Assembly: GCA_964106915.2 (NCBI GenBank)
Contig: OZ066914.1
Reading direction: 5' to 3' (one strand)
Origin: Podarcis gaigeae
Lineage: Eukaryota
DNA: 64,000 nt
Shown here: positions 6,243 through 64,000 of the stretch, piece by piece
Numbering within the stretch: position 1 is the first letter of the stretch
How the letters are laid out: each line of letters begins with the position of its first letter
Program-made: the position numbers and the translations under genes
The notes under the pieces: generated by a model
Database searches by the model: none
The model's input: the letters and a program-made list of their open reading frames with translations, nothing else
Told to the model about the DNA's origin: nothing

Positions 6243-7979
6243 AACTTTCAAGAGAACTCTAGATACATTTTTATTTCAATCCACATTCAATTAATTACTG
6301 TGTTTTTATTCATTGTGACTGCTCTTTATAAAAAAAAAGTGCACAGTGGAGTTTTAATTTATGTTTATTGTATTGTTTTTAATTTCAGGTGTTTTTGTGA
6401 AGTCAATCTGTAGACTGTAATGTTGCTTAAAAAATATTTAAAAGAAAAACTTATTCATTTATTCTCCACCTTTCAAAGTATTTTCCCCAAGCCAGCTTAT
6501 ACTATCAGCAAAACAGCAGCATCAGTACAATAAAACAATTTAAAAGGACTATCTATCTAAAAAAGAAACAGAAATCTAACAGCAAATTATTACAGAGCAA
6601 AAGGGTTGGGGAAAATGCTTGGTGGACTGGTTCTGGAGTAAAATTGTTATGCCAAATCTCAGAAGTAATTGTCAAGAGAAAAGTCATAGTAACACTGGGT
6701 TCCAAGCATGTTGCCTGAAACTGTACCTTGTGTGGGTTTTCTTATTTGCTTTGCCCTCTACCCTCCCTCCACCCACAGTTGTGGACTCGTAATTTCTGAT
6801 AAAAAGATTAAAGGAATTCTGCAATTTCATTGTAAATGCACTGGAATGTCAGGGGGAGGAGCAAACAAAGGTCTATCCATAGGTTATCACATTAAAATTT
6901 CATCACAACTCAGCAGGAAAAGCTAAATGTTTCAATTAAAAGCATGGTCACACACAGTCATTTCTCACTGCAAGGCTTTGATCTAGTAGAATCACCACAG
7001 GAGTGGTTGTATGACTAATCTCATCCCTGTTTAATAGTCTAGAGAAATGAAGCTGCAGCAAAGTTAAGATTACCATCGGAAATAGCTGATAACAAAGAAA
7101 AAATAAACCATAACCAAAGGTACATGGATTAATAGTGACAAACACTGGCTTGCTTCATTTAAACTTGTGCGGGGGTGGGGGATATAATGCAAATGGAATT
7201 TTAAAGTATTTAGAGACTGCACAGACACCAGGGCCAAATACTTATCGGATAATAAAATACAGGCCTTTCACAGTGGCAGCAATTTTAAACCCTGGCAGAA
7301 TGCTAGTTTCATTTGAACTGGTTTTGTTAATGCTGCAAAGATAGAAACAGCCTGGGATGGATTCTGGAAACTGCAGGATTCTGCTCTGAGACTGACTGCT
7401 GTTGCATTCCTACCATTATTCCTGAACCTGCAATTTTAAAAAACAAACAAACAGATTTTCATACTACTGGATTTAGTGTAAGACACTTCTCCTCATTCAA
7501 GTCAGGGCACCTGACTTTTGCTGATCCCCTCCTGCCCACTTAAACCCTCTGACCTCCTAAAAAGCTGTTCCTGAGGTCCCTTCAGTCCACAATGTAATGC
7601 AATACAGAAGGCAACACTAAGAGTGTGGGACTACAATAATTAGGTGCACGAGTGTGTATTAGTGGGATTGCTTTCTGCTAGGGCAAAGTCATCATCAGCT
7701 GAAACATTATAAATCTGTAATCCTCTTTCCCAAAGAGAATGTTGCCCTGCAAAACCCCAGAGTACATAAAAATCAGATTATCAAAACAGTTCTGTATGTT
7801 CGTTTTAAATGACTGGAGCAGAAGGACCACTATATTACAAACAGAATTAGCACCCATGCCTGATTTAAGCCCATATTTATGCAAATGGTCTCACACTGAA
7901 GAATGATGTGTTCAAACCATGATCCTGCCTAGCACAGTCATGAAAATTAAGTTTATCCTCGTTCACACAATCCCCTAAA

Positions 7980-10575: not shown

Positions 10576-12488
10576 CTTCAGGAGGGATCTGGGCCTGGGC
10601 TGAATCACAGGGGGAAGGGTTTGACACTGCCCCCTCTCCAGTCCTTCATAGCATATCACACACACACACCGGAGCCGCTTGTAGCAAAAGAAAAATAAAA
10701 TCGAAATGCATTTATGCATCTCTAACATCATGGTTAATTTGATTTCTAGCTTCCAACCGAAAGCAATCAAACATAGTCTTAAAACGCCTAAATTTGGGGG
10801 AAAGAATGGTTGCAGTTGAGATTGTGGCTAGCTCGAACCTCCTATCTCTGAAACTCACGCTTATGTTTTAGTTCTTGACCACTTGGTTTGAAATCTTTTT
10901 GTTCCGATCTTCAGAGGATCATTCAGCAATGGGAATTGTATTCAGATTGTATGCATATTACTGCTTATGTTGCTGGGGACTGTATTTTCTTCCTTTTGCT
11001 TTGCCTTCTTTTTATAGGCTAATTTTTTCCATTCCTATTGAGGAAAGCTTTGCAGCCCTTACAAAGCGCCACTCATGCTTGACAAAAGTATACTTTTGCT
11101 GCCAAAATCAAGGCAGTGCCTTTTTTGCATATGGTTGCATCTGCCACCTTTAATTAAGAAGCCATGTGAGCCACTCCTCTGAAGAAGCTGAACACGTTGT
11201 GGTGTAATGTAGCCCCTTAGAAAGAGTTTAAAAGCTTAAAAAGCAAGTTTGCTGATCCCACAAGAGATTGCATTGTATTTACTATTTTACATATAAGAAT
11301 ATGGAAGGGGGAGATTCATAGAGTTCATATAGAAGGCTATATAAAAGAGATAAAAATCTGAAAAATGCCATCCTGTTTCTCAGTTACTGAATGTGTGGTG
11401 TACATGTACAACACGTATTTGGAGAACTGGATGTGCTCATTTAGCAAATCTGGTCCCCCCTGTCCAAATATCCCTGGACATTGCCTGTCCATGTTGTTGA
11501 CCAAGGTGGCTCCAGCAAAGACCTGCAGTCTGCATTATCTTGATGGTGGTATCCAGATTCAGCTTAACTGGTGTCAAGTGAAAGCAACGAGAGCAAACAC
11601 TGAGTAAATTTGCAATTGCAGGCCTACACACAGGAAACAAAGGTACAATACCAGAACAACAGAGGCTATGCTAAGAAGGGAAAAAAAACCTGTCCCAAGA
11701 AAGCACATTCCTGACTCAGATATAACATTTTCAGGACCAGCAGCAGTACAGTTGTTGCTCCAGTACTGGTCTGAACTTATTGAGCCCTCAGGTATTGCAG
11801 AAGCCAAGGAGATAGCCCTCCTGATGCCACCTGCAAATTTCCGCAAGAGTGAACTGAGTAGTTCTTTGATGATGGAAGGTGAGGAAGGCCTCACCTTCCA
11901 TTTTTCAGCCCAGTGACACAGGAGATTCTGGGTGCCTTTGGGACATGCAGAATTCTTGGCAAACTTCTGCTTTGCTGAAGCTGGATGTCACTTTGCTCCA
12001 CTATATTTCTGGAATCACTGTGGGCTAGTTTGACTGAAGGCATTTCTTTATCTTCCCTACAAGATTGAGGATTGTTTTCTGCTGCTTGCATTACTCACAC
12101 AATGAGTGGTAATCACAAGAACTAGAGCAGAAATCCTGAAAACTCCATTCATAAAAAGTGGGTTTTCAAGGTCTGGACTCACATGCAGGGTCTGGTCCAT
12201 GATACCAAGTTAAATGACATTCGCAAGTCCTTACTATTTCAAATCAGGAAAGTGCATACACAACAACCCAAACACAGTTAATAGGCTAAACATAGGACAT
12301 TTTATAGCAACAAACCACAGTGTTTCCTATATAAATGTTGTGAATAATGGTCAAACTAGATGCAACACCATCATTAATAGTTTAAGTGTTACACCTGAAT
12401 GAGGACATATTATAGAAATACTAGAAATTATCACATTAGGACAAAAAGGCTCTTCTAATTTTGAAAATGTACTATGGATTATACTTAC

Positions 12489-12629
12489 TACTCCCCACCA
12501 AAGGGCATCCGCATAGCTGCTAAATTCATGCTCGCCTGAATCATTCACAGCATCTTTTTCAGCCAAGTACACAAAATAAGATGAAAAAATCAGGCCTAGA
12601 AATCCAATGTACAGAGTAGTTATCAATTC
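12489..12629 (-). CDS. KCNQ1: KCNQ1 exon 6 (S5, turret, pore helix)
   Basis: 141 bp; cttttcag|GAATTG...GGAGTA|gtaagt; [47 protein letters not shown]. Confidence 0.97.
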
Positions 12630-13432
12630 CTGAAAAGAAGAATAAGAGCAAATTAATGAATAACTAGAGGCACATAGAATACTGCTGCTGCCAAATGTTA
12701 TTTTATAAAACGAATGACTGATTATTGGGCTCAGCTACCACACTGAATTTAACCAATTAAACATTAATCAAACAGTTCATTAATTTCAGTCACTCTACTC
12801 TGCCTAATGCTTAGTTGACTACCACCTGATATTTCCAATTTGCACTTAGCAAATCATTTTACCTTAATACTAGGTCAAAAAAATATTATTGTCAGTTACG
12901 TTAATGCAGCAGAATTGCAAACTGAAGTTGGAAAAATGATATTTTTAACCTTGTTCTCAAAACAACAAAGGATTAACTGACAGCACAATACTATGCACAT
13001 CTACTCAGAAATTAGACTTAATGGATTCAAGTGGCCATATGTGAGAGAAAGTAGGATCGGAACTAGCAGAACTGAAACAAATTACATCAAAACCACAGCA
13101 AATTATTTTTACAGGAGTTTGTTTGCACACACAGAGATTTTAAAATTATTAGGTCTGTCACCCAGTAAATGAAACCTTAGCGTTGAAGCATATGTCTACT
13201 TAAAAGTAAGCCCCATCACTGAGTTCAGTCAGGCTGACTCCAGGTATAGAATTGCAGCCTTGGTCAATCAAATAACATTAGTTAATCAGCTAATTAATTA
13301 AACTGATTAAATGTGATTAACTGTGAGTAAAGTCTGAAGCAGCAGGAAGGGGATTTCATTTAGTCCAAGATACCCCCAAAACAGTATATGGTCTATGGAA
13401 TCTGGCAGCCTAACAGTAAAATATCCTTATCA

Positions 13433-39237: not shown

Positions 39238-39405
39238 GTTACAGATAGGTAGCCGTGTTGGTCTGCCATAGTCAAAACAAAAAAAAATTCCTTCCAGTAG
39301 CACCTTAAAGACCAACTAAGTCAGTTCTTGGTATGAGCTTTCGTGTGCATGCACACTTCATGCACACGAAAGTTCATACCAAGAACTGACTTAGTTGGTC
39401 TTTAA
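39238..39405 (-). mobile_element. Penelope-like element (PLE) terminal fragment with inverted duplication
   Basis: Minus strand reads 'gtgtgcatgcacacgaaagctcatacc..gttggtctttaaggtgctac..cagaccaacacggctac', resembling reptile Penelope pLTR ends; 50-bp inverted repeat; flanked by 13-bp direct repeat GGTTCTAAACCTG (39225-39237 / 39406-39418). Confidence 0.75.
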
Positions 39406-39793
39406 GGTTCTAAACCTGTAACTACAATCGGTCATAAAGTTCATCTAGTATTTTACGTCTGACGGTATTTCCAGAAAAAGCAAATGTATGTGGATTTCAG
39501 AGTTCCAATTTTTTAAAAGGCTTTACAACAATTCCCTAAAACTGTGTTTTCCTTCCAGGCTGTGTTTTCTCTTAACTCACATAGTAGCCATGGATTAACA
39601 AGACTCCATTAAACGGTGAGTGTGTGAGAGGAAAGATATCTATAATCAGCTGATGCCACATGGAAATATATGTTCATTGTTACTTCCACGGCAAAACTCT
39701 CTCTCAAAAGCTCTGAGTTCTTAAAAATCAGACTTTAATTCCCTGTAAAGAGCTCTGATATATCTTCCAGAATGCGCAATTGATATACCAAAG

Positions 39794-39856: not shown

Positions 39857-42180
39857 TATTTATTCATTTATTAATCGTTTCACATATAATATATTGGAAG
39901 CAATTTGACAGTTTAAAAAATAACACACACAACCCCCCCAAAAATGTTACACAATTTCATATATAAAGACAATTATAACTTCTTCTTTTAAAAAAGCTCC
40001 AACTTGGCATTTAAAAACAACTTCAAACCCAACACAGATAGAGTGGGATAAAGAGGTCGACTTTAAAAGGTTTCTTGAAACTAGAAAAGAGTTTTCAACA
40101 AGTAGCAATGGAAAAAGCTGCTCTTGCAAACTAGCACCTCAATAGGTACCATTTAAGATGTACCCAGTTTCAACTCCGTTATCCTCCCTCCTCAAAACCA
40201 ACAACTGTTCTTCCAGCTGAAAACTGGCCATGTTCCCCACCCCCATCCCAGCAGCAGATAACCTCCTCCACCCATTCAGCCTCCATCCTCTAAACTGAGC
40301 TTGCCAACAATGGTTTTTGTAACACAGATGCTCCACTTCAGTCATTATACTGAGATCACTATGTCATATCACGTTGGCCATGAGAAGCAGCCTGCCAATG
40401 GCAAGAACAATTTACCCCTATTGGTCTGTGCTGGATTGCAATCTGTCACATCCAAAAGTTCTGGCCAGAGCCCTTCCTTACAGGGTCAGGACCACGTGAA
40501 TTAAGGGTGTCTCTTCACTGAATTCACATTTTCTGTTTTTTCTTCTTCAACAAGAACATGAAAGGCCAGGTAATAAACAAGTAACAAGTGCAACGTAGTT
40601 TGCTACTTTTATTAATGGAAATGACAATTGAGACATAACGTTTGTTTTGCTTTTTAAAAATCAATCTGAAATATGTTGTTTACTCATTTTATTCCATTTT
40701 AATCCTGCATCCTGATTTCATGGAGCTCAGGGCCACATACACAGATCTTCCTCACCTCCAGTTTGATCCTAATAGTAACCCTTTGAGGTAGGCTACGCTA
40801 ACAGAGGTGCGCAGTAAAGGTATGAACCTGAATTTGATCCTCAGCTGACACTCTAACCACTGTACCACAATGACCCCTCTTAATGTATGACTGCTTTTTT
40901 ATGGGGACGGCTTTCATTGCATTGCATTGCAGTGCACTGCCTAACAATACAAGGCTTATTTTTCCCACTGAAAAGCTTAGAGCAGAATTACAGTTATGAG
41001 GGAATGGATGAAAGGACACTGTAGGAGACATAAAAACACTCGGAATATTATTTTTATAGAGGTACAAATCTTGTCTCCCTATACCTGATCTCCCCCTGCC
41101 TGTCTTACCAGGGCACTATAAAATTCATGAACTCAGTTACATATGCTGTGGGGGATTATACAAGAATTATATTCATTAACAATTAGCTCTGACCCTTATT
41201 TCCCCCCCCCCCCGTTCTTTGTTTACTTTAAAATATATATCTCACGTACTATTTGAAAAAAATATTTTTCATGATTACATGATGGCAGAATTAACCGTTT
41301 AACCATTAACGCACCCTCAGTTGCAGTTGCCTCACAAGACGGCTTAACACTGCCCCCTGTAGATTTTGCAAAGGAAATCTTTCCCTTCTGTGCCAATTCA
41401 TAGTTGAAAGATAGCAGCGATGTTCTTCCCTTCAATATTCTGGCCTCATTTTACACTCTCTTTCCAGAGCAGTATGGCCTGAGACCTTTTTTGTATTTGC
41501 CCAGGTACCATGCTTGCAGTATTATCTCCCTTTTAAAAGCAGACATGCAATAGTGAGGCCTCCACCCACATTTTAAGCTAAGATAGGGGTGGTAATAATA
41601 CACACGGTTGCAGTTCACAGTCCACGTGCCACTTGCGTATTTTGTGTTCAGGTGTTCACATTAAAATACAAAAAAGCCCGTAGAAACTGGCCGTAGTGTA
41701 TTTGGATTAGGCTCTTGAGGCAAAATAATTTCAGACCTTGCATTCACCCTCATTGTTTCTCACACTGAAGAGAAGAGGGCTACAGCTGGGGCAGCAATAT
41801 TCTTAGATACCCATTTAAAATCTCTAGAAGTGGTGTGTATATTATGTGCGTTCTCATCCTCCTCTCATGCAAACCATTAAAAGCACAGGTTTTGCTGGCC
41901 AGTGTGTGAAAATAGGTGCAAATGTTATACAATATGCAACTCTGTTTCAGAACAACAATAACAATAAAAAACCCAAGTGAACTATTTATCCGTTTTTCAA
42001 GTTTCATCATCCTTGGGTGTATCTTGGAGACAACAGTACAACTTCTTAGAGCAGTACAACTTCTGGTGAGATGGAGGGGAGGATTACATTTTTAAAAAAT
42101 CATGAAAAACAAACCTTGCTTGTAGAAAACTAGTACATCAGGGTGGGGTAGGAGTGTTCTAACCTACATTCGCCCTTATA

Positions 42181-42422
42181 CAGTGGTACCTCGGGTAACA
42201 TACACTTCAGGTTACATACACTTCAGGTTACAGACTCTGCTAACCCGGAAATAGTGCTTCAGGTTAAGAACTTCGCTTCAGGATGAGAACAGAAATCGTG
42301 CTCCGGTGGCGCAGCGGCAGTGGGAAGCCCCATTAGCTAAAGTGGTACTTCAGGCTAAGAACAGTTTCAGGTTAAGTACAGACCTCGGGAACAAATTAAG
42401 TACTTAACCCGAGGTACCACTG
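42181..42422 (+). mobile_element. Tc1/mariner (Tigger-like) MITE, family B
   Basis: TIR CAGTGGTACCTCGGG / CCCGAGGTACCACTG; TA TSD; near-identical to 47606-47847. Confidence 0.9.
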
Positions 42423-42919
42423 TATACTAGTTTACTAGTTGAAGGGAGGCTTTTTTTTTCATGAGTGAGCATTCAAGATTGTGACATACACCTGAAATCT
42501 AAAGTACTACAATTCCAGAAGAACTCTATCTCATGATTTTTCTACATGCTCAGAGTAGCCCTTGGTGAATAATGCCAATATTAGGAGTGAAATGCCCATT
42601 TTTCAGGTTCCTGAAAACGAAACACCTTCATTCAAGCCTTCAAATAAGCACATTTATTTACAAATACAATTTACAATGCAATCCTAAACATGCCTACTCA
42701 TCAGTAAGTCCCATTGAGTTCAACAGCACCAGCTGCCAGGAAAATGGGCATAAGATTGCAGCTTTAGTCAACTAACAAGTTAATTAACAGACAGCTAATT
42801 GATTAAGACATCATATGTAAGTTATAGAAATGTCACAATAAATATCAGCACACTTGGCAGCAGAGAAAGAAGCTCACTGCTATTACTTAGGCATTTTGCC
42901 AAGATGGGATGGAGAAAGC

Positions 42920-46872: not shown

Positions 46873-47605
46873 TCATTAGAAAGCTAGTACTTAAGGCAAA
46901 AAAAAAATTAAACAGCAAGCACATTTTTGTAAAAAGGCTATCCATACTCCAATATTGAATTGTCCATGAATGGGGAGAGAATGGGAAAGAAGTCTGTAGT
47001 TGCTCATTTGTTGCAGGGAAGAAAATAAGAGTTTGGAGAGGAGTGGAGGCCTGATGCTAACACCATGGCTACTTTTGTTGAACTAGAGAGCAGTGCAGAG
47101 TTTGGACAGAATCTCATAATCCATAAGAAATACATTGATACTATGTCAAAGCCTGACCTACAATTTTTCTTTTTCTTTTTCCTCTTCCAAGAGAAACTTC
47201 CATTTTCCTGCCTCACTCAGGGCACTTGAAATTTTCTTTAGAATTTCTGTAGATTTTGAGCTCACCTTACTCTTGTCAGACTGAAGAAATGTTTCCCCAC
47301 CCCTGCTGTAAACGTTTTTGTAGCAACCTGCAGCCGACCTACACTTCCTGATCTGAAAAACCTCTATGGGAGGAGTAACTTCCTGACGCTTTCATCCTGG
47401 TCCTGGGCTTAACAGCAAGGCGGCAGAGTGCAGAGCACCAGTGAGATGGTTTGTGGTATGAAAGAAAGGACATTCACAAACACACCTCAGCCACCTCACA
47501 AAAGTAAGGTAAGTGCAACAGAAAAACCTATCCACCCCTCCCATGAGAATTCCATATTGGCTTTCTACCAAATTGAAGGACAGAGCAGGAACTCGGGACC
47601 ATGTA

Positions 47606-47847
47606 CAGTGGTACCTCGGGTTACAGACGCTTCAGGTTACAGACGCTTCAGGTTACAGACTCCACTAACCCAGAAATAGTACCTTGGGTTAAGAATTTTG
47701 CTTCAGGATGAGAACAGAAATTATGCTCTGGTGGCGTGGCAGCAGCAGGAGGCCCCATTAGCTAAAGTGGTACCTCAGGTTAAGAACAGTTTCAGGTTGA
47801 GAACGGACGTCCAGAACAAATTAAGTTCTTAACCCGAGGTACCACTG
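47606..47847 (+). mobile_element. Tc1/mariner (Tigger-like) MITE, family B
   Basis: TIR CAGTGGTACCTCGGGTTA / TAACCCGAGGTACCACTG; TA TSD. Confidence 0.9.
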
Positions 47848-49239
47848 TATTAAGCTTTTCAACAGCAGTCGTAAGACTTTAAAACATTAAAAATGATTCC
47901 ATGTACTGGTATTTTGTTTTCATCAATGTCCACACAAGTACAAATTCATCTTGCAGCACTTCTCCCACCCGACCCTAGCAAACCCCTTCCATATCTGAGA
48001 TGCAGGTAACACACAGGCTGTGCAGTTGCAGCATTTGACATGCTATTGCCAATTCAACCAGCTGCAACAGCTCCTCTCTGGGAGCCATAAGCCCACCACA
48101 CATTGGGCCAACATGAAGCTACTGTTTCCGCTCATCAGTCACAGCTGCATGACCGACCATATAGCAAACAGCCATGGTTGTGGGCTGCTACCTGTGCAAT
48201 GTAGAAACAGAAAATCCCACAATTTCATGCAGTAGCTTTGTGGTAAATTAAGACTTAGCATTTAAAATAGTCATCACATTCAATCAGTGTGTGCGCATTA
48301 TGCCCCAATCCTGCCATCTTTCTGCTATTATTTGTGCAGAATATAAGAATTACTGTGCATGTCAAACAGTAGATATCCTTTTCCCCCCAATTCTGAACTG
48401 GATTTCCTGAAAGAGCTCTGAACAATGCAATAATATTTGTACTTTTTAAGAAAACAAGACGCACAAACAGGATACTTGTGCATGTGTGTTTGTGTGTGCC
48501 AGGAAAAGCTGAAATTGTTAATTTGAAACATGCAGCCCCATATTCCCATAATAATTGTTTAATTGTATAACCTCAACTATTTGACAGAAATATTTTTCCC
48601 AAAGCCATCTCCCCCAGAGAACAATTGTTTTCTAGATACATGTTTGCATAATTGGTGTCCACATTGTTAGATGTCCTTCTGCATGCAATAGTGTCTTCTA
48701 CTTACGAAAGGACTGTTTTACACTTTTTGCTAGAGTGCTCAATACAAAAGTGAAACTAAAACTAGAAATATTCTTCCGCTTCCATAAGTTTGTAAAAATT
48801 ATTGCAAAATGGAAGCATGAGGACAGTAATGGAACGTACATATTTCAGCGCTACGTGAACTCTTGCACAAGTTCGCATTTACAAAACAAAAAGCACTAGC
48901 AGCTCTTTTCCTTCTTCTAATGGCTTTTTGGATCCTGTTTAATGCGTATTAATTTTAAAGATTTCTAAACAAAGAGGACATTGATTTGCTTAAAAGTGCA
49001 AACATGCATCCATGTTACTAAATAAAACAAAAATGAAGGTGTCTAGAAAGCAACATTTATAGATCATAACACAAATAAAATGGGCAGCATCAATAATGGT
49101 TTCACGTCAAGGTAAAACCACATCTCAGATATCTGAATTTGGTTGTTGCTCCTCCCCCTCAAGAAAGTGGGCTATGAAGACCCTTTATGAATTCAACAGC
49201 TGATAGAGCAGCTATTAACTGTTGAGCCAAGTAGGAAAC

Positions 49240-52139: not shown

Positions 52140-52865
52140 ATTTACTGTATCTTAAATGTTTTCTCTGAAGTAGTTCTCTATATTATATCCCCACCCCACA
52201 TAAAAAAGACTTCCTGTGAACAAGGGACAACCAGTAAATGAAAAGGGTAGCACCAATAAAAGTGAAAGACACACACACACTGTGACAAAAAGAATACAAT
52301 ATTTGGTTGCTTTTTTTAAAAAAAAAACCACCTGCTATTTTTAAAAGAGATAGGAAGCAGTGTGCGTAAGTAATCCAAGGCTGTGTTACTAGTAAAACAG
52401 GTTTGTCAGAAATGACACAATGCAGCTGATTTCAGGGCTCCAGCAAACTATTATTCTGCTTTGTGCTGTATTTCATTGTACAATTATTTCAAAGCAAGTG
52501 AGGTCAAAAGTGCTTTCCTACTTGAACATTTAATTATCTTGACGGCTATTTGTAAACAGCTTTTCAAAATGCCATCATTATATAGTGGTGGTTTAAGTAA
52601 AATATCCCCCAGATCTTCCTTGCACAAAAGGGTATTATCTCAATTAGAACATTAAGCAGAAGCCACAGCCCAGCGATTATAACCCCTGCACCACCTCTGA
52701 GAGGCTGCATATTTCTGGAGTTTTTTCCAGATTTATGGCCAATGCACATTTGAACATCACACAAATCAAGAGGGTGGATGTTATGTCCAGCAAGAACATG
52801 CAGCTGCAAGATCTGCAGACCATGCAATTAACTTGAGGATCATGTTGTTTGGTTAAAAGTTCTGC

Positions 52866-52929
52866 GTTAGCAGAGTCTGTAACCTGAAGCGTATGTAACC
52901 TGAAGCATATGTAACCCGAGGTACCACTG
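52866..52929 (-). mobile_element. Truncated mariner MITE (family B), one TIR
   Basis: Reverse complement of the family B left end: ...GTAACCCGAGGTACCACTG|TA. Confidence 0.8.
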
Positions 52930-55084
52930 TACACATTACTTGTTCCTAGTGTATTTGCGGCAGATAAGAAGTACTCAGAAAGTGATTTATTTAAAAATGC
53001 TTTTTTACATCTGTGAACACCTTTGGTCAAGGCTGCATCAATTGCTAACAAATGTAAGCAAACTTCTAGGTTTTTGAAGACATTTTATTTATGTATAAGA
53101 TTCTCCATTTTCCTGTAGATTCAAAATATTGCTCGTGTCCATTCAAATACCAGCTGAGGGGCACTTAAAGGATTCTTGAAATGAAAAATGTACCCATATG
53201 AAATTGCTATTTAGTAGTACAGGCAGAAGAGCAAACGATGTTGCTTTGGCATATATATAAAACAAGGTAACATCTGTCACTCTGCTTCATAATATACACA
53301 ATGACCAATTTGTCCAACTTCAATATGTGTGATTATGACAGGGAACAAACATCAGTTTCTGTACCCAATACTACTAGACAAGCAGTACACAACAGTGTGA
53401 ATGCCTACACTAGGAGAATACTTGTGAAAGCCTAATATTCATTCTGCTCTGTATCCAACGACATACTGAGAACCTGCTTAGTGTCTGCAAAGTGCTGCAT
53501 GGTCCTCTGGTGAAAAACAAAAGCTAAGCTTTGGTGTCTTTATGACATCACTTACAAATGGGGGTCAAGTACTATTCTCCGATTTCTGGACGGAGAGTAC
53601 AGCCTTGTCTGGGGTTCATTCATATTGCATGGTGCATAAGCAGCATCTTAGACACCAGGGCAGTTCAGCTGCTCATCAATTAAAAAGGTAGGCACGGTTA
53701 AGTCTCTTTCCCACATTTTATAAAGTGCCATACATATATGCAACACTGTTTTTAAATGCGGAATAGATAATAGCGCTGAAGCAAAACACTTCACAAAAGT
53801 TATTTTCCACAGGCTGACCCCACACAATTTGCTAGCATGTTTTATTATAACCACTCCCTCTTCTACCTTTTACTTCTAGTAAAAGGCAAAAATGGCACAA
53901 AGGTTTCAGCGGTCACAGAAAGAAGTGAACTTCGCTAAATGCAGGTTGGACAATGGCAGCACATTCAAACCTGATTATGTCTTACAACAAGAGCCAAGTC
54001 TGAACACAAAAGGCAAGTTAACTGCCCACATGTGATGGCCAAATTCAGCCTATACTAAAAGTCTGAAATAATAAGAAACTTCTAGTGTCATTCTACTACA
54101 GAAAACTTGCACCTGTGCAAACAAATTCTACTCTCCCCCCCCCCCCAGGATACATGTAGAGGAGGAGAAAACCAACATATTGAGCAATTGCCAAATGGAA
54201 AGCTATCATGGTGGGGAAGCGAAACTCGATGAAAGAAGGGAGGGAGCTAACAAAGGGATCCAAGGAGAAAATAATTTGCGAACCTAAAATGCATTTTCAC
54301 AAAATCACAGGATTGGGTGTTTCTGAGGGGGAGAGTGGGGAGCGGTGGTGCTGAACTCTTCCCCTGTTAGCCATGTTCCTCCTCCAAGTCATATATCAGC
54401 TACTTTTCATCCCACGGGGGATAGTGAATGCTGTGACATCTGCCTGAGTATTAAATATTGTACCTTCACCTAGGGCTAGCCCAAGGTATTTTGCTGCTTG
54501 AGGCAAAACAGAAAAGGATGTCCCACTGCCACCAATACCGCCTAAGGCAATTAGAGGCAGCCCAGGGAAGCTCTGGCACACTGAAGGTGGCATGGGGGGA
54601 AAAAGGCCAGAGAGGAGTAGGTGGGGGAGCAGTGGCAGTGGTGGCAGCCCCACACACTTCCTAGGCAGTGCCAAGCAGTGTGCTCCTCATGGGCCTTCTG
54701 AGAAGTGGAGGAAGAGGAAGAGGCGAGTCTCAGCTAGCAGGCAAGCAGGTGTCTCCAAGGTGGTGGTGGCTCCTATCAATAGCCAAAGGAGGAGGAGCGA
54801 AGGCATGCCACTGCCTCAGTGAGGCTAATGGGCCGTCTGGACCTCCCTTCAGCTGTGCTGAACCTGTTTGTTTGTAAATAAAGGCTAATATTATGAAATA
54901 GCAGTAAGCCTCCAGTGACCTCATTTCAAGGGAAACCAAACCCAGATAAGTGCTGCTCCTCTGGAGCATCACACAGAGAATTGGGGTGCACCTACTTAAC
55001 AATATAGAGACATCAACAAACCAATTACACTGGCATTCATTTATGAAACAATACTAGAATACACATCTGTGCATGTGCTAAGTT

Positions 55085-56793: not shown

Positions 56794-58756
56794 CCTTAGA
56801 TCCTCCAACTGTTAGCCGCCTCACCCACAGTCACAAACTGTGAAATGGTTGACAGTCCATGCAGTTTATGTTCTGAGTAGGTTTCATGAATTGAAAGAGC
56901 ACACATATTAAGCCCATTTAAGAAGTTTGTGGATGAGGAAGGCATTGCTAACCTGCCCCTGGATAATCAAATTGTCATGTGCATGCTGTCAGCAAAGACA
57001 AGATACCAGTTTCAGTCTGAGTTCAAAGACCCCGACATTAAGCTACTACTTCAGAGTGTATATTTAGATAGTGTTGAGAGAATGTATTGAAATGTATCAA
57101 GAACAAATGTCTGAACAACACATGTTCTTGATGTAACTAATTATGCTTTAAGATATTAACTTTCCCAGCTATTCCTGCAGGTTTCCAAAATATGCAAAAT
57201 GTTAATATTCAAATCAGCTGTTAAGACTATAGCAGATCATAGATCAATAATGTCAGAAGCAAGCACATCAAGGCTATGCCTGCACAAGCTGTCACTTGGC
57301 ATCCTTGTATTGAAGCTGGGGCTCAACTAAGTTGTTACAGGTGCAGAACAAGGTCTACTTCTGCAACAGGACTTTCCCCCTTGCCTCACCACATGAACCC
57401 TAAAGTCCTCCTTGGAGTGGGGGGTTAGGGGGAGGCCTGCATTCTTACCCTTCTGGAGCTTAAAATCTCCTTCTGTGCTCTCTGCCTTGCTTACTGCCAC
57501 TAGTTCTGTGATGCTCTCGCAAGATCTCATGGGGGCTGTGCAAGTTCCTGTGAACTTGGCCGGTAAGCAAGGCAGAGAGCTTGAAAACTCTTTTGTGCAC
57601 TGGGAAAACCCTGTGTGCATTTAATTAGCACAATCTAATCCAGCTGGCCTGCAACTGCACTAGGCTGAAACTGAACAAGTTAAATGCCCGTAAGATGCGA
57701 CCGTACTATACAAATAGCAACAACCTATACGCAGCCTCTCTTCTGCCAGGCTAACAGTAAGGGCCACACAATAAGGCTGCTATTGTAAAAGGTTCAATGT
57801 GTGTCTGCTTAACGCATATTTAAGCTCTGCTTATCACTGACAATAATTTTTGCATCATATTGCCATTCAGCTCCCACCTTACAGTTCTCTCCTTTATATG
57901 CCTGCCAACTTAGATTTCACTTCACGCATCTGGCAAAGCTTATGTCATAATAGATTCGCTGGTCTTGAAAAAAGAGACATCACACATACTTTTGTAAACC
58001 AAGAAATCTTTAATAAAAATATGTTTATAAGGAGCAACAAGGCTCTTTAACTGTTTTTGCTGCAAGAGGTTAACACAACTACATGCCTATGGCAAGGATG
58101 GAGTTGTAATTCCAGTTGCAACTAGACAGCTCCATAGTGCACAGGAGGCAACCACAGAGAAAAAGCAGGAGAAGGGTTCACCCCCATGCAAGAACTATGA
58201 TCCCGCCACAGAATACTCCTTACAACCTGAGCTGTAGGACCTCCCTCCCATTCTACCACCTAGAACATTTCCTTGGCCTCATCCCAGGACCAGGGACACT
58301 AGCAAATAATGGTACCAGCATCTGGGAAACTGCTGTTGCAGCATTCAAGGCAGCAGGAGAAGGCAGAAGCATGGCACAGCAGTTTTCATTATAATTCAGT
58401 TCAAAGAAGAATTTGGGGTGGAGAAGGGAGCTTGATGCATATGGAGGCAAACATGAAATGTTCAGCAATTTCATATTTTGAATCAAATAGTTGCAGATTT
58501 CAGTAATATCAGCCATGCCATTAAATGGACACCCATGTGCTAAATAGCCATTTCCTTTGTGCATTAACCTTTTGTATAACAAGCTAAGGTTGTGTTCTCC
58601 TCTTTGTCCTGAAAAAGATTGGCAGCAAGTTTGGAAAGTTACATAGCAAGTAACTTTCAGAACAGCAAGATAAATGATAAGGTGCAGCTGACAATATGAC
58701 ATAGCAATATAGTACTGTATTAAATTTCTCTTCTTTGAGAGAAGAAAAGGCTAAGG

Positions 58757-58960
58757 CAGAGCTTTCCAAACTTTTCATGTTGGTAACACACTTTTAAGAC
58801 ATGCATCATTTTGCGACATGGTAATTCAGTTTTAAAAGCAAACTGGAGGTTAAACTAACAACTTTCCAGCCCAAGGAAGAGTGTGGGGATCATTCACGCA
58901 ACACACCTACACACTGCAGCCGACACACTAACACCACAACATACATTTTGAAAAGCTCTG
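58757..58960. mobile_element. hAT-type MITE
   Basis: TIR CAGAGCTTTCCAAA / TTTGAAAAGCTCTG; perfect 8-bp TSD GGCTAAGG (58749-58756 / 58961-58968). Confidence 0.9.
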
Positions 58961-59496
58961 GGCTAAGGAGTAAATCCCACACAAATTCAGAGTGGAATCC
59001 CCAAGACGGTTGGATGGCCCCTTGTACGCCTCCTTCTGGCAACTCCTGCAGCCCAGCTGGTGCCAAATGTATTGCTCCGCTTTCCTTTGGGCCACAATAG
59101 CGAGTCCATACACACTGCCCAGGATTGCACCCCAGAGACGTCACTTCAGCAAAAACAATGAAAAAGGCAGCAGTTATGAGTTACCACTCTTGGCAGCCAC
59201 AGCAAACACCGTGATTCTCCAGTGGTTTGACTTTGTCCCCAGAGGCACACTCCACGGTCTTTCAAGACAGAGGGATGCCAACAAATTCCCCTTCCACACA
59301 AAGGCCAACCTCAGATGATCAGATGCTTAGAGGCAAGTGTGGCAATTTGCCAGGTGATAGTATTCATGCAATGCTGTGGCATGCTTCAGACACAGTATTA
59401 TGTACCGGTATGTTACATAATTATGCCAAATGGAAGGGGTGGATTATTTAAACAACAGCTTTACCCCTTAATATTTACAGAAAGTTCATTGGTTGG

Positions 59497-59835
59497 GAAA
59501 GGGCCAATGGTAGAGCATATGGCTTGTATGCAGACGGTCCCAGGTTCAATCCCCAGCATCTCCAGGTGGGGCTACGAGATATTCCGGCCTGAAACCATAG
59601 AGATTTGCTCCCAGTTAGTGTAGACACTGGTTTTTAACTGGTGAATTGGGATCCACTAGTGAGTCACAGACTGATCTAAAGTGGGTTGCAACAGGGGACA
59701 GGATCACTACCACCATGCAAATATATGGCAAAATGAATGTTTGGGTTAAAAGTGGGTTCCAGGGTCTGAAAAGATTGAAGATACCTAGTGAGCTATATGG
59801 ACCAATGGTCTGACTCAGTATAAGACAGCTTCCTA
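59497..59835 (+). mobile_element. tRNA-derived SINE (Squam3-like) with a hAT-like MITE nested at ~59625-59789
   Basis: A box 'tggtagagc', B box 'ggttcaatccc', 3' end 'ggaccaatggtctgactcagtataagacagcttcct'; interrupted after 'gtgtagac'. Confidence 0.7.
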
Positions 59836-60077
59836 GTTGCCACTACTGTGGTTTTTGTCAAGTTACCCAGCAATCTGTAGTAACAATCCATTTCATAACT
59901 TAGATGGTCCTGTACAGAGACTTTATTGGTTTCATGGTTCTACAGAGTAGCCCAAAGTTATACCTGATCCCCTTTTTCAAACACTGGTACTATACTTCCC
60001 CACACCATCAGTTACCATAGCATGTTTCTGCTGTAAGACCAATATATTTTTGTGCCTGAAATGGTCACTCCAAATGG

Positions 60078-61773
60078 GACTTCCGGGTCGGCGCCATCGC
60101 CGAATGGCGGACTCCCTCCGAGCTCCGGAGGGAGCCTGCTTGGCAGGGGCTGGGTCCTACCGCACCGGCGATGCGGGGACCCTTAAAAACCACGGCCAGA
60201 GGAGGCCGTGGACATGGAGACTCGGCTGGCACCGTTAGCGCCCTCCCGACTCGTGAAGGAGCCTTTTTAAAGGCTACGGATCGGGTGCCGGGGAGAAGCG
60301 TGGTGCTTTGAGTTCTCTGCTATCCCTGCCGAGCGCAGCCGCATGCCATCCGGCGGAGAGCGCTGACTTCTTCTATTGAAAATTTGGATCTAAAGAAGAA
60401 CCCGTGAGTAATTGGAATATGGACTAAAAAAAAAAAGGGATAAATTTTTAAAATTTGGAGCGAACGGGGGAGGCGGAAAAAAGGAAGTCAGCCCACCCCT
60501 AAATTGTAGAAGAGCCAAAACAAAGGACTGGACAACTAAGATCGAGTGTAACCTTATTTTGCCGAATTAGCAACTTCGCGAGGGAAAATTATAAGATTGA
60601 GCTGGAGGAGGAAAGTGGAATTGTTTTAAAAAAGCAACCCCCCCCCCCCCGGAATCCCTGGAGCGATTCGTGAAACTGCCTGGAGAAGAGCAATGGAGGT
60701 TTTGACAGCTGTCAAAGAGCTGTCAAAAAGAAAGATTAAAATAGAGACTTTGTTACGAGGACTTTGCCGGTTACATTTGTTATAAATTGAACATAAACTG
60801 CTTCAAATATGGACTAACAAGTTACTTGGATTGGTGGATGTGATTCTGGAAGGGAACTTTGTTACTGTAATCCATCTAGAGGAGCTGAGGGATATTGCAT
60901 GTGTTTTTGAGGAAACTTGAACAGTTGAATGGAACTTTTAATCTCCTGGGAAACTGCAGGAATGGAACATTATTTTGTCTACAGAGGTTTACACACTACA
61001 GGAAACAATGGAACTATTTGTTGAAAAATGAAAGGAACATGATGCAATGCTTTGCTCCTGAATAACAAGCCTCTGCAGAGACACTAGAACTTTTGGAAAA
61101 AGAACATTTCTGTGGGAGAACAGAGAAACAAAAAGGAGGAGAATGATTGACAAGAACAAGGAAACAACAAGAACTGGACAGAACTGGGAGAGGGAACATT
61201 TGGGATATCCAGGCTTGACAAGCTTATGGAAACAAAATTGGAGTTCTTACTCCTGGATATAAAAACCTGGATAGAAGAAATGGGCCCCTTTTTTGATAGA
61301 CTCCTTCTATGATTGGACACTCGTAATTAAAGACTGGCAAAGAACCAGAGGGACGTGGGCATAATGTAATATGGGAACTCCAGGAAGATACTAGAAGTAG
61401 AGGGATAGGTGAAACGCAAAGGGGAAAGAGGGGAGGGAAAGTTGGAATCCAAAGGTTGTAAAATCACTACTCATATTTATTTTATTTCCATCTGTACTAT
61501 GTTTGAAAGGGGGGAACTCGTGGAAGGGAATAGATCGATCTTAGGGGATGGGAATTTGGATAAATTGGGTTACTGATGATGAGTGTAATTTGGGGATAAG
61601 AACTTGTTGAATTTAATTGCTTATTTGGAAGATTTGGAACACAAGAGGGGGTAGGGAGGGGAAGTCCTGGTTATTGGCAAAAAGTTTATAAATTGGATTT
61701 AATTTGTTTTAATTTGTTTTAATTTGGAAAACCTTAATAAAAATTATTATAAAAAAATAAAAATAAAAAAAAA
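60078..61773 (+). mobile_element. Full-length non-autonomous poly(A) retroelement (L1-dependent, HAL1-like), non-coding
   Basis: 21-bp TSD TGAAATGGTCACTCCAAATGG (60057-60077 / 61774-61794); CpG-rich 5' leader starting GACTTCCGG; G-rich 3' tract; AATAAA at 61736 and an A-rich tail; no plus-strand ORF of 60 aa or more beyond the leader. Confidence 0.85.
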
Positions 61774-64000
61774 TGAAATGGTCACTCCAAATGGCTCCCC
61801 TCTCTATTAAAGAAAAAACCCATGGTAAAATCAGCTGACAATTTCTGTCTCTTTTCAAAGCTCAGCATCTGCTGACAGAGACAGGTTTCCCCTCTTCTAA
61901 CTCAAGACAGAGGTAAACCTTAAGCTTTAGTTCACAATAACATAAGAAGCATCCTGCTGAATTAGAAGGAGGCTCATCTGGTCCAGTGTTCCATCTACCA
62001 GGTGCCTATGGGGGAAACCTCACTAACAGGACATTAGTACAATAGCACTCTACAGCTCACGTTTCTCAGTTCACTCACTGTTGACTTCTCAAGTGAATTC
62101 AGTGGGAATGTTTGGGACAAGAATCAACACAAACAAAACTGCCCAAGCTGCAGTGGCTTGCGAATCTCCTAATGGAATGCTTTAAGCCCATTACAACACT
62201 GTCTAGAAATGTTTCCTTTTATAAATGTGCTTATTTGTATCAATGGTATACTGCAAAAGAGTAAACTTCTTTTCCATGTGCCAGAACAGGATTCTAATGG
62301 GATTCTAATATACCATTATAACATCCCAACCTTTTTCTGAACAGAAACGTTATGCCAAAATAGAAGTCTCAGCTAATTAAAACACACACATAGCGGGAAC
62401 TTTAGCAAGATGAAATATTAATGTCTGTGGCATGTTATATCTCTATCTCCCGCTGCTATTTCTTTCTTGTTGTAAGACATGGGCAGTACAGTGCAATCAT
62501 GTATTGCTGGGGCCCAGACATGTTATGAGGCACCCTGCCAAGAGTCAACACTATTATCTTGATTCTCATGCAAGGCATGTCCCTGGGGAACTCAGAGATG
62601 GCACACAATGCCTTTGACCTTGCCAGGCCATGAGCCGAGTGTTTTAACTCTTTTTAATACTGAATTTTAAACTGTTGTAACCCACTCTGGGCCCTGCTGG
62701 AGAAGGGCAAGTAACAAATTTAACCACTACCACCATCCTACCCAGCCCACCTTGGAAAAGGGCCATAGTGCACTCTGATTTTTAATTCGCGCCTGGTGCA
62801 TTCTTACTTGGATTGCAGTCTTTTAAAAAATAATAATATTAAAGCTTTTTATAATACAAAAAACTAAAAGAAACTAATCTAAATAAAAATAAAAGCAGAG
62901 AAGAAAAAAGAAAATGCAGAGTCCTCTCTCAAAGGTAGCTATTAATTCTCGCCTCACACAGAAAGTGGTGGACCCTCCTAGCTCTCACCTAGGAGCTTTC
63001 CTTTTTCTTCTCCCAGTCTCACCCTGGGAGGTCTTCCCTTTCCTGCCTCTCACTCAGGATCTGGGTCCTTCCACTAACCATCCACCAACTTCATGTGTGT
63101 GTAATCCTTGGACCCTTGCAGTATTTTGTTACTTAAAGTAAACATCACCATGGTTTCAATGCTGCTGCTGCTACCACTACTACTAACCTTATATACAATA
63201 GGATTACAAGTATGTCGCCACACAAACTGCAGCACAGGAATAGAATAGCAGGTGGGCAGCTCATGAGGGCAGGCGAGTTAGCAAGCTGGCTGCTCAGCTG
63301 AGTGCCATGGATGGTGAGTGGCCCATGCAAACCACAGACTGAGGAATAGTCAGGACAGAGCAGGGCAGCCCCCCACAACCATCCTGCTCTGCTGTCACCG
63401 CACACCTCACACCAAGGAGACAGAAGAGGAGGGAAGCAGCAGCACAGCAGGACCACTGCTGTGGAGCTGTAACAGCTTGTCTTGCCTGTTCCGCTGCAGC
63501 AACCCCTGGGTCACAGTTGGGCTGAGCTGTAAGAGAAGCTAGTATGGCTTGGCCAAGTGGGCAGGCATATGAAGAGGGAAGTGGAAGCAGGGAGGCAGGT
63601 GGGAGCACAGAAACAAAGAGTGGAAAGTCTCTCCTTCAACCTGTCCTCCCCTCACGCTGTTGCCACTGCCACAGCAGGGGGGGGGACTACATCTCTCCGG
63701 AATGAATGCTGACCTCCCTTTAAGGCCTTTGGTGATTTTCCTTTTAGCTGCAGCTAGACTGGTTATACCACAGGATGGAAGGATGCTTCTGTTATTAATG
63801 TGAACTGCTGTTATAAGAAGGCTTTGTTCTTACCTGTCTCAGAAAAAATTAACCCATCATCTTATGGTTTTGAAGGGGAGTGCTAAACTAGTGGACTTTG
63901 CTGCCAGTTGAAGGGCTATTGTGACGCACACGAACAAATGACATATGAAACCACTTGTCCCAGTGAAGTAGTATGACTCCGTTTGACTGATTGGTCCAAA

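Follow-up and report, generated by a model that had tools for sequence, protein, structure and literature searches.

LINE-1 (L1) RNA is usually said to need little beyond its poly-A tail, and the 5′ UTRs of mammalian L1s turn over too fast for covariation to be followed. Structured 5′ ends are known among non-LTR elements, most of them ribozymes. Ribozymes of the R2 type produce a precise 5′ end (PMC3414825; this and the other papers cited by PMC number are drawn on in excerpt). In the excerpt of Kojima (2018, PMC5786205), bipartite LINEs that lack ORFs are listed only from the RTE, Ingi, Vingi and R2 groups, and half-L1 elements (HAL1) are defined elsewhere as encoding ORF1p only (PMC5753468). 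The 5′ UTR of human L1 functions as an internal Pol II promoter, and lizard clade-1 L1s share the 5′ consensus GACTTCCGGTGN8ATGGCG (PMC5381506). The locus described here lies in a stretch of 64,000 nucleotides of Podarcis gaigeae DNA (the window). Judged by its sequence, the interval 60078..61773 (plus strand) is a young, protein-less repeat of about 1.7 kb that is mobilised by L1, which we designate family A, and its leader shares a predicted folded 5′ domain with autonomous L1s of this genome.

A protein-less element with L1-type ends

The element is flanked by a 21-bp target-site duplication (60057..60077, with the same letters at 61774..61794) and closes with an L1-type 3′ end (61660..61773), consisting of the word GGAAGTCC, an AATAAA at 61736 and an A-rich tail. 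Over its last 76 nt it matches the 3′ terminus of one L1 (L141) at 68% identity. No Pfam family reached the cut-off in ten frames of the element, which holds no intact ORF and has no reverse transcriptase of its own. An autonomous L1 partner is present in the same genome: L143 carries ORFs of 357 and 1251 amino acids, the longer encoding endonuclease and reverse transcriptase, behind a homologous leader.

A search of the genome (1.51 Gb, 211 contigs) with the leader returned 1853 first-look candidates, 40 of which were scored, at 99-100%. All 30 fetched loci align to the element, 27 of them as a single block, with 95-99% identity when the window's own copy is excluded. Target duplications of 11-22 bp were found in 40 of the 45 copies having a 5′ start, and A-rich tails and A-rich insertion sites recur across the family, all of them hallmarks of target-primed reverse transcription (TPRT). 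A pure run of one to five extra G precedes 26 of the 40 duplicated copies, while eight have no extra letter and six have other letters; this variable G run is probably the mark of capped Pol II starts. When the top 40 copies were chosen by their 3′ ends, 36 reached the leader (19 coincide with 5′ matches, one of these being the window copy; two were recognised by the H4 hairpin pattern described below at the right distance; and 15 of 19 fetched copies reach the 5′ end), a full-length share that is biased by the sample being the top-scoring, youngest copies. Two 5′-truncated copies on different contigs (L119 and L127) both start at element position 1016.

Part of the element is held by twenty sequencing runs from eight studies, mostly as small shares, and none of these runs is on record as RNA. 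In four runs of two related organisms the interval 60078-60419 is covered far deeper than the remainder, at 80% likeness, which is in line with a leader common to many families; contigs from these runs carry no start, strand or expression-level information.

Elsewhere in the window, an exon encoding the pore region of KCNQ1 lies on the minus strand at 12354-12734 (E about 1e-24 to solved structures), and the element may be situated antisense within a KCNQ1 intron. A 54-nt inverted repeat, 96% complementary with a 7-nt spacer, occupies 39298-39412. A 250-nt repeat bounded by terminal inverted repeats, and therefore likely to be a small DNA transposon, has copies at 42174-42425, 47599-47850 and 52860-52933.

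The leader is predicted to form one closed multibranch domain

A sequence-only reading of the window had described the leader as an array of at least six back-to-back hairpins. The stems that it named are all present in the letters where it placed them, and none of 200 dinucleotide shuffles folds as well as the interval to which it assigned them (60092-60325, plus strand; z -3.69). Structure beyond chance was thus correctly recognised, but the independent array was not borne out. When 50 more bases are included (60078-60375), z falls to -5.89 at a folding energy of -162 kcal/mol and the centroid nearly equals the minimum free energy (MFE) structure, whereas the 298 nt that follow give z +1.51. 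Within this longer context hairpins 2, 4 and 5 and the arm tip have pair probabilities of 0.91-1.0, whereas the mean for hairpins 1 (60092-60109) and 3 (60135-60147) is 0.0; the arms of hairpin 1 pair instead with 60345-60369 and those of hairpin 3 with 60323-60334. The prediction for the leader is therefore a single closed multibranch domain of about 290 nt that extends past 60325. The domain is retained when the whole 1.7-kb element is folded, and in 16 of 17 leaders z does not rise above -2.6.

The predicted domain spans 60085..60369 on the plus strand and is closed by an outer helix (60085-60108 with 60345-60369). It encloses hairpin H2 (60109..60136), the long-range helix P3 (60138..60334, pairing 60138-60149 with 60323-60334), hairpin H4 (60152..60182), hairpin H5 with a variable loop (60190..60211) and a long arm (60216..60318), which comprises a base helix (60216-60233 with 60302-60318), a variable middle and a tip hairpin (60258-60277). 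The loop of H4 contains the conserved word CGGCGA, found in 83 of 94 leaders. The H4 loop could form a kissing pair with 60097-60102, but only in family A, and this pairing was dropped on inspection of the alignment.

A degenerate H4 pattern has 1020 exact matches in the genome, and a control has none. Among the first 100 matches listed, the free pair of H4, counted by hand, is A-T in 70, G-C in 18, T-A in seven and G-T in one, and is unpaired in four. The stretch G000:C2:11299085-11336651 has four H4 matches with one and the same variant sequence, at intervals of 10-14 kb, which probably reflect a tandem segmental duplication.

The leader is inherited from autonomous L1s

The leader aligns to the 5′ UTRs of autonomous L1s of the same genome with 62-68% identity over 350-470 nt; it is the best hit in seven of eight L1 elements fetched, and the eighth aligns too. 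The likeness between full-length L1s and the derivatives is limited to these 5′ 350-470 nt and the last 76-200 nt, with nothing clear between. The alignments identify the leader as a 5′ UTR that was handed down from a LINE-1 lineage of reptiles. The sequence-only reading had overlooked this origin and so also the probable internal promoter.

The 5′ terminal words of the leader (60078..60110, plus strand) are promoter-like, comprising GACTTCCGG, which is presumably ETS-like, and a YY1-like ATGGCG. They fit the consensus of lizard clade-1 L1s (PMC5381506), with ACTTCC at the start of 89 of 94 leaders and ATGGC in 89 of 94. By analogy with human L1, the DNA of the leader is probably also an internal Pol II promoter. 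A further word, GGAAGTC (60483..60489, plus strand), is the complement of the 5′ terminal GACTTCC and is found in 92 of 94 leaders.

Sister families lie between the autonomous L1s and family A. Family B, recovered as 14 copies with a pattern that excludes family A, is about 73% identical to the element over the first 700 nt and carries a 212-amino-acid ORF. An ORF1-like fragment nested in one family B copy led to at least 150 scored L1 matches with 5′ UTRs that can be aligned to the leader; the fragment itself (L041:1925-2315) is a short piece of L1 ORF1 with a duplicated flank. Twenty loci picked for their variant H4 sequences brought to light a second lineage of L1, along with families that carry a 213-amino-acid ORF and others in which the ORF is decaying. 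The 3′ ends of the sister families are 62-73% identical to the 3′ UTR of L1s L137-L139.

The 212-213-amino-acid ORF of the sister families (L110:952-1590, L040:2335-2970 and relatives) has dN/dS of 0.26-0.52 in five pairwise comparisons. Compared with ORF1, it gave an hhalign probability of 0.3% (with shallow profiles) and a best BLASTP E of 2.5e-5 at 20% identity. No homologs were found at E 0.001 among proteins of 116-371 amino acids, no Pfam family was assigned, and the best Atlas entry (score 0.84) is blank. The label ORF1 is our assumption, made from position ahead of the endonuclease/reverse transcriptase ORF and from known motifs; Pfam PF02994 (L1 ORF1) matched nothing in the genome, these ORF1 proteins included. 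In the lineage that we call L1a, an acceptor-like stretch lies just before ORF1.

Decayed remnants of the sister ORF are detected by tblastn in the window at 60948..61252 (plus strand; E 0.004 for 60948-61058 and 2e-8 for 61121-61252), interrupted by stops and frame changes. The 1.2-kb middle of the element is a decayed descendant of coding sister families and not the product of a simple internal deletion. The families form a series, in which an L1 leader joined to a new ORF was followed by decay of that ORF and then by family A. The zf-RVT loci L031 and L032, with at least 150 relatives, were set aside: they belong to another, older L1-like family and have no useful similarity. Immediately downstream of one L1 there is a second leader copy (L140, about 6960-7400) that seems to be internally duplicated.

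Compensatory changes support the predicted helices

For comparative analysis, 116 loci yielded 94 complete leaders, with the GTGAGT word downstream of the domain as the cutting anchor. RNAalifold applied to 37 of them gave 60 pairs, of which 23 are changed on both sides; H5 was missed because its loop differs by one base. A relatedness-aware test was carried out on 67 leaders, leaving out 26 of the 29 family A copies and one duplicate. The structure under test was that predicted from the window sequence alone, and double changes that keep pairing were counted on internal branches, with all families coming from one genome and events assigned by parsimony on one tree. On the raw alignment this yielded 21 compensatory events against 3.0 in simulation, a total reached in none of 300 simulations; with the register of H5 fixed by hand there were 22 against 3.0, again reached in none of 300.

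The signal resides in five helices, each with P of 0.01 or less: H2 (four events against 0.8, P 0.007), P3 (five against 0.7, P 0.01), H4 (three against 0.2), H5 (five on the raw alignment and six after the register was fixed, against 0.3-0.4) and the arm base (three against 0.2-0.3). The swaps seen in P3 are C-G/G-C and A-U/U-A. The arm tip has one event (P 0.09-0.12). In the 67 leaders no event was found in the middle of the arm, where pairing is below the null, in the outer closing helix, where the sequence is nevertheless conserved, or in hairpins 1 and 3 of the sequence-only reading. As decoys, 256 helices that this sequence could also form were scored on the real data; they gave 0.022 events per pair against 0.202, none of them with two events. 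Slid controls were 40-47% paired against 77.5%, although the way this comparison is built gives the window-derived structure an advantage. The overall fraction paired, on the raw alignment, does not differ from the null (0.764 against 0.760), and a scan of all pairs did not stand out clearly from its own null (27 pairs with at least two events against 16.2 +/- 4.8, maximum 32 in 60 simulations).

Two compensations lie on the branch leading to family A: a G-C pair became A-U at 60164/60172, and another became C-G at 60196/60205. In the nearest relatives of family A the ORF is already broken. As these compensations followed ORF decay, the fold probably has a role beyond adjusting how the element's own protein is translated. 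With z-scores well below zero, and with compensatory changes spread across L1 and non-autonomous families, the selected RNA fold envisaged by the sequence-only reading gains support, and we consider it very likely that the leader fold is a selected RNA structure with some function.

What the fold may do

Since the fold has been kept without a protein product, it would serve a step required by every transposing RNA, the candidates being RNA stability, export or RNP loading. We put at about even the chance that the fold protects a capped 5′ end and aids export of the unspliced RNA and its capture by L1 proteins acting in trans. Under such a scheme the DNA of the leader would serve as an internal Pol II promoter, the transcript would be capped, the closed multibranch domain would shield its 5′ end, and the unspliced RNA would be exported and then captured by L1 proteins supplied in trans, with selection acting on the RNA fold itself.

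Alu RNA is thought to sit on ribosomes near nascent ORF2p, and the selected fold could similarly act on ribosomes, stalling or shunting scanning 40S subunits as a control on ORF1 and holding the non-coding RNA near nascent ORF2p. The leader is very stable and contains four AUGs, L1 ORF1 begins about 920-1000 nt downstream, and the covariation evidence serves this explanation equally. However, compensation went on without an intact ORF, which counts against control of the element's own ORF, although not against capture at the ribosome, and the leader has no Rfam match: a search at E up to 10 over 57000-64000 gave four weak hits, none of them within the leader. We regard action on ribosomes as unlikely.

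Selection might also have acted on DNA only, the leader being a CpG-island internal promoter in which template-switch mutation or DNA-binding proteins maintain the palindromes and RNA folding is not under selection. The composition (CpG observed/expected 0.93, GC 65%) and the promoter-type 5′ words favour this, as does the equal folding of both strands. The reverse complement of 60092-60325 has z -4.50, so the plus-strand z is not diagnostic of strand; the plus strand is the stronger fold in only 11 of 17 leaders; and the alignment folding energies are -145.6 for the plus and -136.8 for the minus strand, with equal covariance terms. Template switching can, moreover, yield compensatory changes in hairpins (PMC8794818). 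The events in the excerpt of that paper are local, however, with longer distances merely possible, whereas the compensated arms lie about 180 nt apart in P3 (five events) and about 85 nt apart in the arm base (three events). Several changes passed through G-U steps: on internal branches, changes from Watson-Crick pairs to G-U outnumbered those to A-C by 32 to 15 (P 0.019), in a helix set chosen after the alignment was seen, compared with 49 to 41 on terminal branches, a difference between branch types that is not significant (Fisher P 0.145). Nested helices have also been kept together. The strand evidence for selection at the RNA level is modest. We regard a role as DNA alone as improbable.

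The splice-like word GTGAGT (60404..60409, plus strand), 35 nt past the domain, raises a further alternative, in which the domain presents a U1 snRNP site there and thereby aids elongation or blocks early polyadenylation, with no splicing. GTRAGT is found in 89 of 94 leaders (GTGAGT in 87, GTAAGT in two), but this count is inflated by use of the word as the cutting anchor. As this alternative would have it, searches with the family A and L1a patterns found no spliced genomic copies (the single family A match is a point mutant, and L1a gave none). Contigs of four runs from related organisms, three of them guessed to be RNA, mainly cover 60078-60419 and contain no GT..AG joint. A similar word, GGTAAGC, was located by eye near position 300 in two Anolis L1 5′ UTRs in the supplement excerpt of PMC5381506. 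The conserved donor of human L1 is, however, retained as part of a RUNX3 site (PMC5860796), making a DNA site an alternative account of such a word, and we judge a U1-linked role very improbable. Least probable of all, in our estimation, is that the domain sets the 5′ end by cleaving itself, as a ribozyme of a new class; the sequence-only reading had brought up 5′ self-cleaving ribozymes. The 5′ structure is large, compact and conserved and 5′ ribozymes occur in several non-LTR clades (PMC5786205, PMC3414825), but no Rfam family falls in the leader, an HDV-like descriptor matched 0 of 94 leaders and a hammerhead core word four of 94 (neither with a positive control, and the descriptor uncalibrated), the element has promoter-like words of its own, and the variable 5′ run of 0-5 G would fit capped Pol II starts and argues against a fixed cut.

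Returning to a fold that protects the transcript and assists its export and capture, the two ends of the RNA might be connected. At 61660-61667 the window has an 8-mer whose letters are the complement, with G-U allowed, of the 5′ terminal GGACTTCC. A scan of the terminal 200 nt in 19 elements (L137-L144 without L140, and a subset of L097-L115) located it in 17, at 100-180 nt from the 3′ end, against a background of 0.05 per 100 nt. Variants of the 8-mer retain pairing by wobble; they share ancestry and show no compensatory change, and end-to-end pairing is not chosen by the MFE structure of the whole element. The 8-mer could possibly mediate pairing of the 5′ and 3′ ends or be a protein site. 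More broadly, we propose only tentatively that the 290-nt domain of reptile clade-1 L1s is a cis signal for full-length retrotransposition, one important enough for selection to preserve it in a protein-less Pol II parasite, and one that may act with the complementary 8-nt word of the 3′ UTR to join the ends.

Comparison with known systems

Like Alu and SVA, family A is non-coding and has a poly-A tail and L1-type target duplications. It differs from them in that its head is L1's own 5′ UTR rather than 7SL-derived, with no Rfam match to SRP RNA, and in its length of 1.7 kb. The sister families resemble HAL1 in combining an L1 5′ UTR, a single ORF and an L1-type 3′ end; with shallow profiles, however, no link could be detected between their 212-213-amino-acid ORF and ORF1, so we do not assign them to HAL1, and in family A that ORF is lost. 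With the 5′ HDV-like ribozymes of R2 and L1Tc the leader has in common a structured 5′ RNA on a non-LTR element, but it is predicted to form a nested multibranch structure in which no pseudoknot is supported, it gave no hit in Rfam or with the descriptor, and it starts with a variable G run.

The bipartite ORF-absent LINEs (RIME, NARTc, the R2 SIDEs and derivatives of RTE and Vingi) are a further parallel: family A too consists of LINE ends, encodes no protein, is moved in trans and is likely transcribed by Pol II (PMC5786205, PMC3414825). In comparison with them, as they are described in these excerpts, family A is derived from L1, arose through a decayed coding intermediate and shows no ribozyme. 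By its sequence relationships it is an ORF-absent derivative of the L1 clade, outside the four clades listed in the 2018 excerpt (PMC5786205), although the families described here may already be catalogued.

The 5′ UTR of lizard clade-1 L1s shares with the leader the 5′ consensus GACTTCCGG...ATGGCG, great length, a CpG island and conservation across families, whereas the RNA structure analysed in the excerpt of PMC5381506 is that of the ORF1-ORF2 spacer and not of the 5′ UTR. The H4 and donor words are absent from its supplement text, in which long runs are incomplete, and the likeness to Anolis lies in the 5′ words. Human L1 gives rise to spliced copies, the SpIREs (PMC5860796), whereas the family A and L1a patterns are without such copies. 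We found no description of a covariation-supported domain in an L1 5′ UTR in the openly accessible literature that was searched. With two L1 lineages and with coding, decaying and non-coding derivatives, this one genome offers a graded series of natural compensatory mutants, and the 1.7-kb protein-less element isolates the cis requirement, making an RNA-level role of the L1 5′ UTR directly testable. If the domain does prove to be a cis signal, it would be the LINE-1 counterpart of the leader and export elements of retroviruses.
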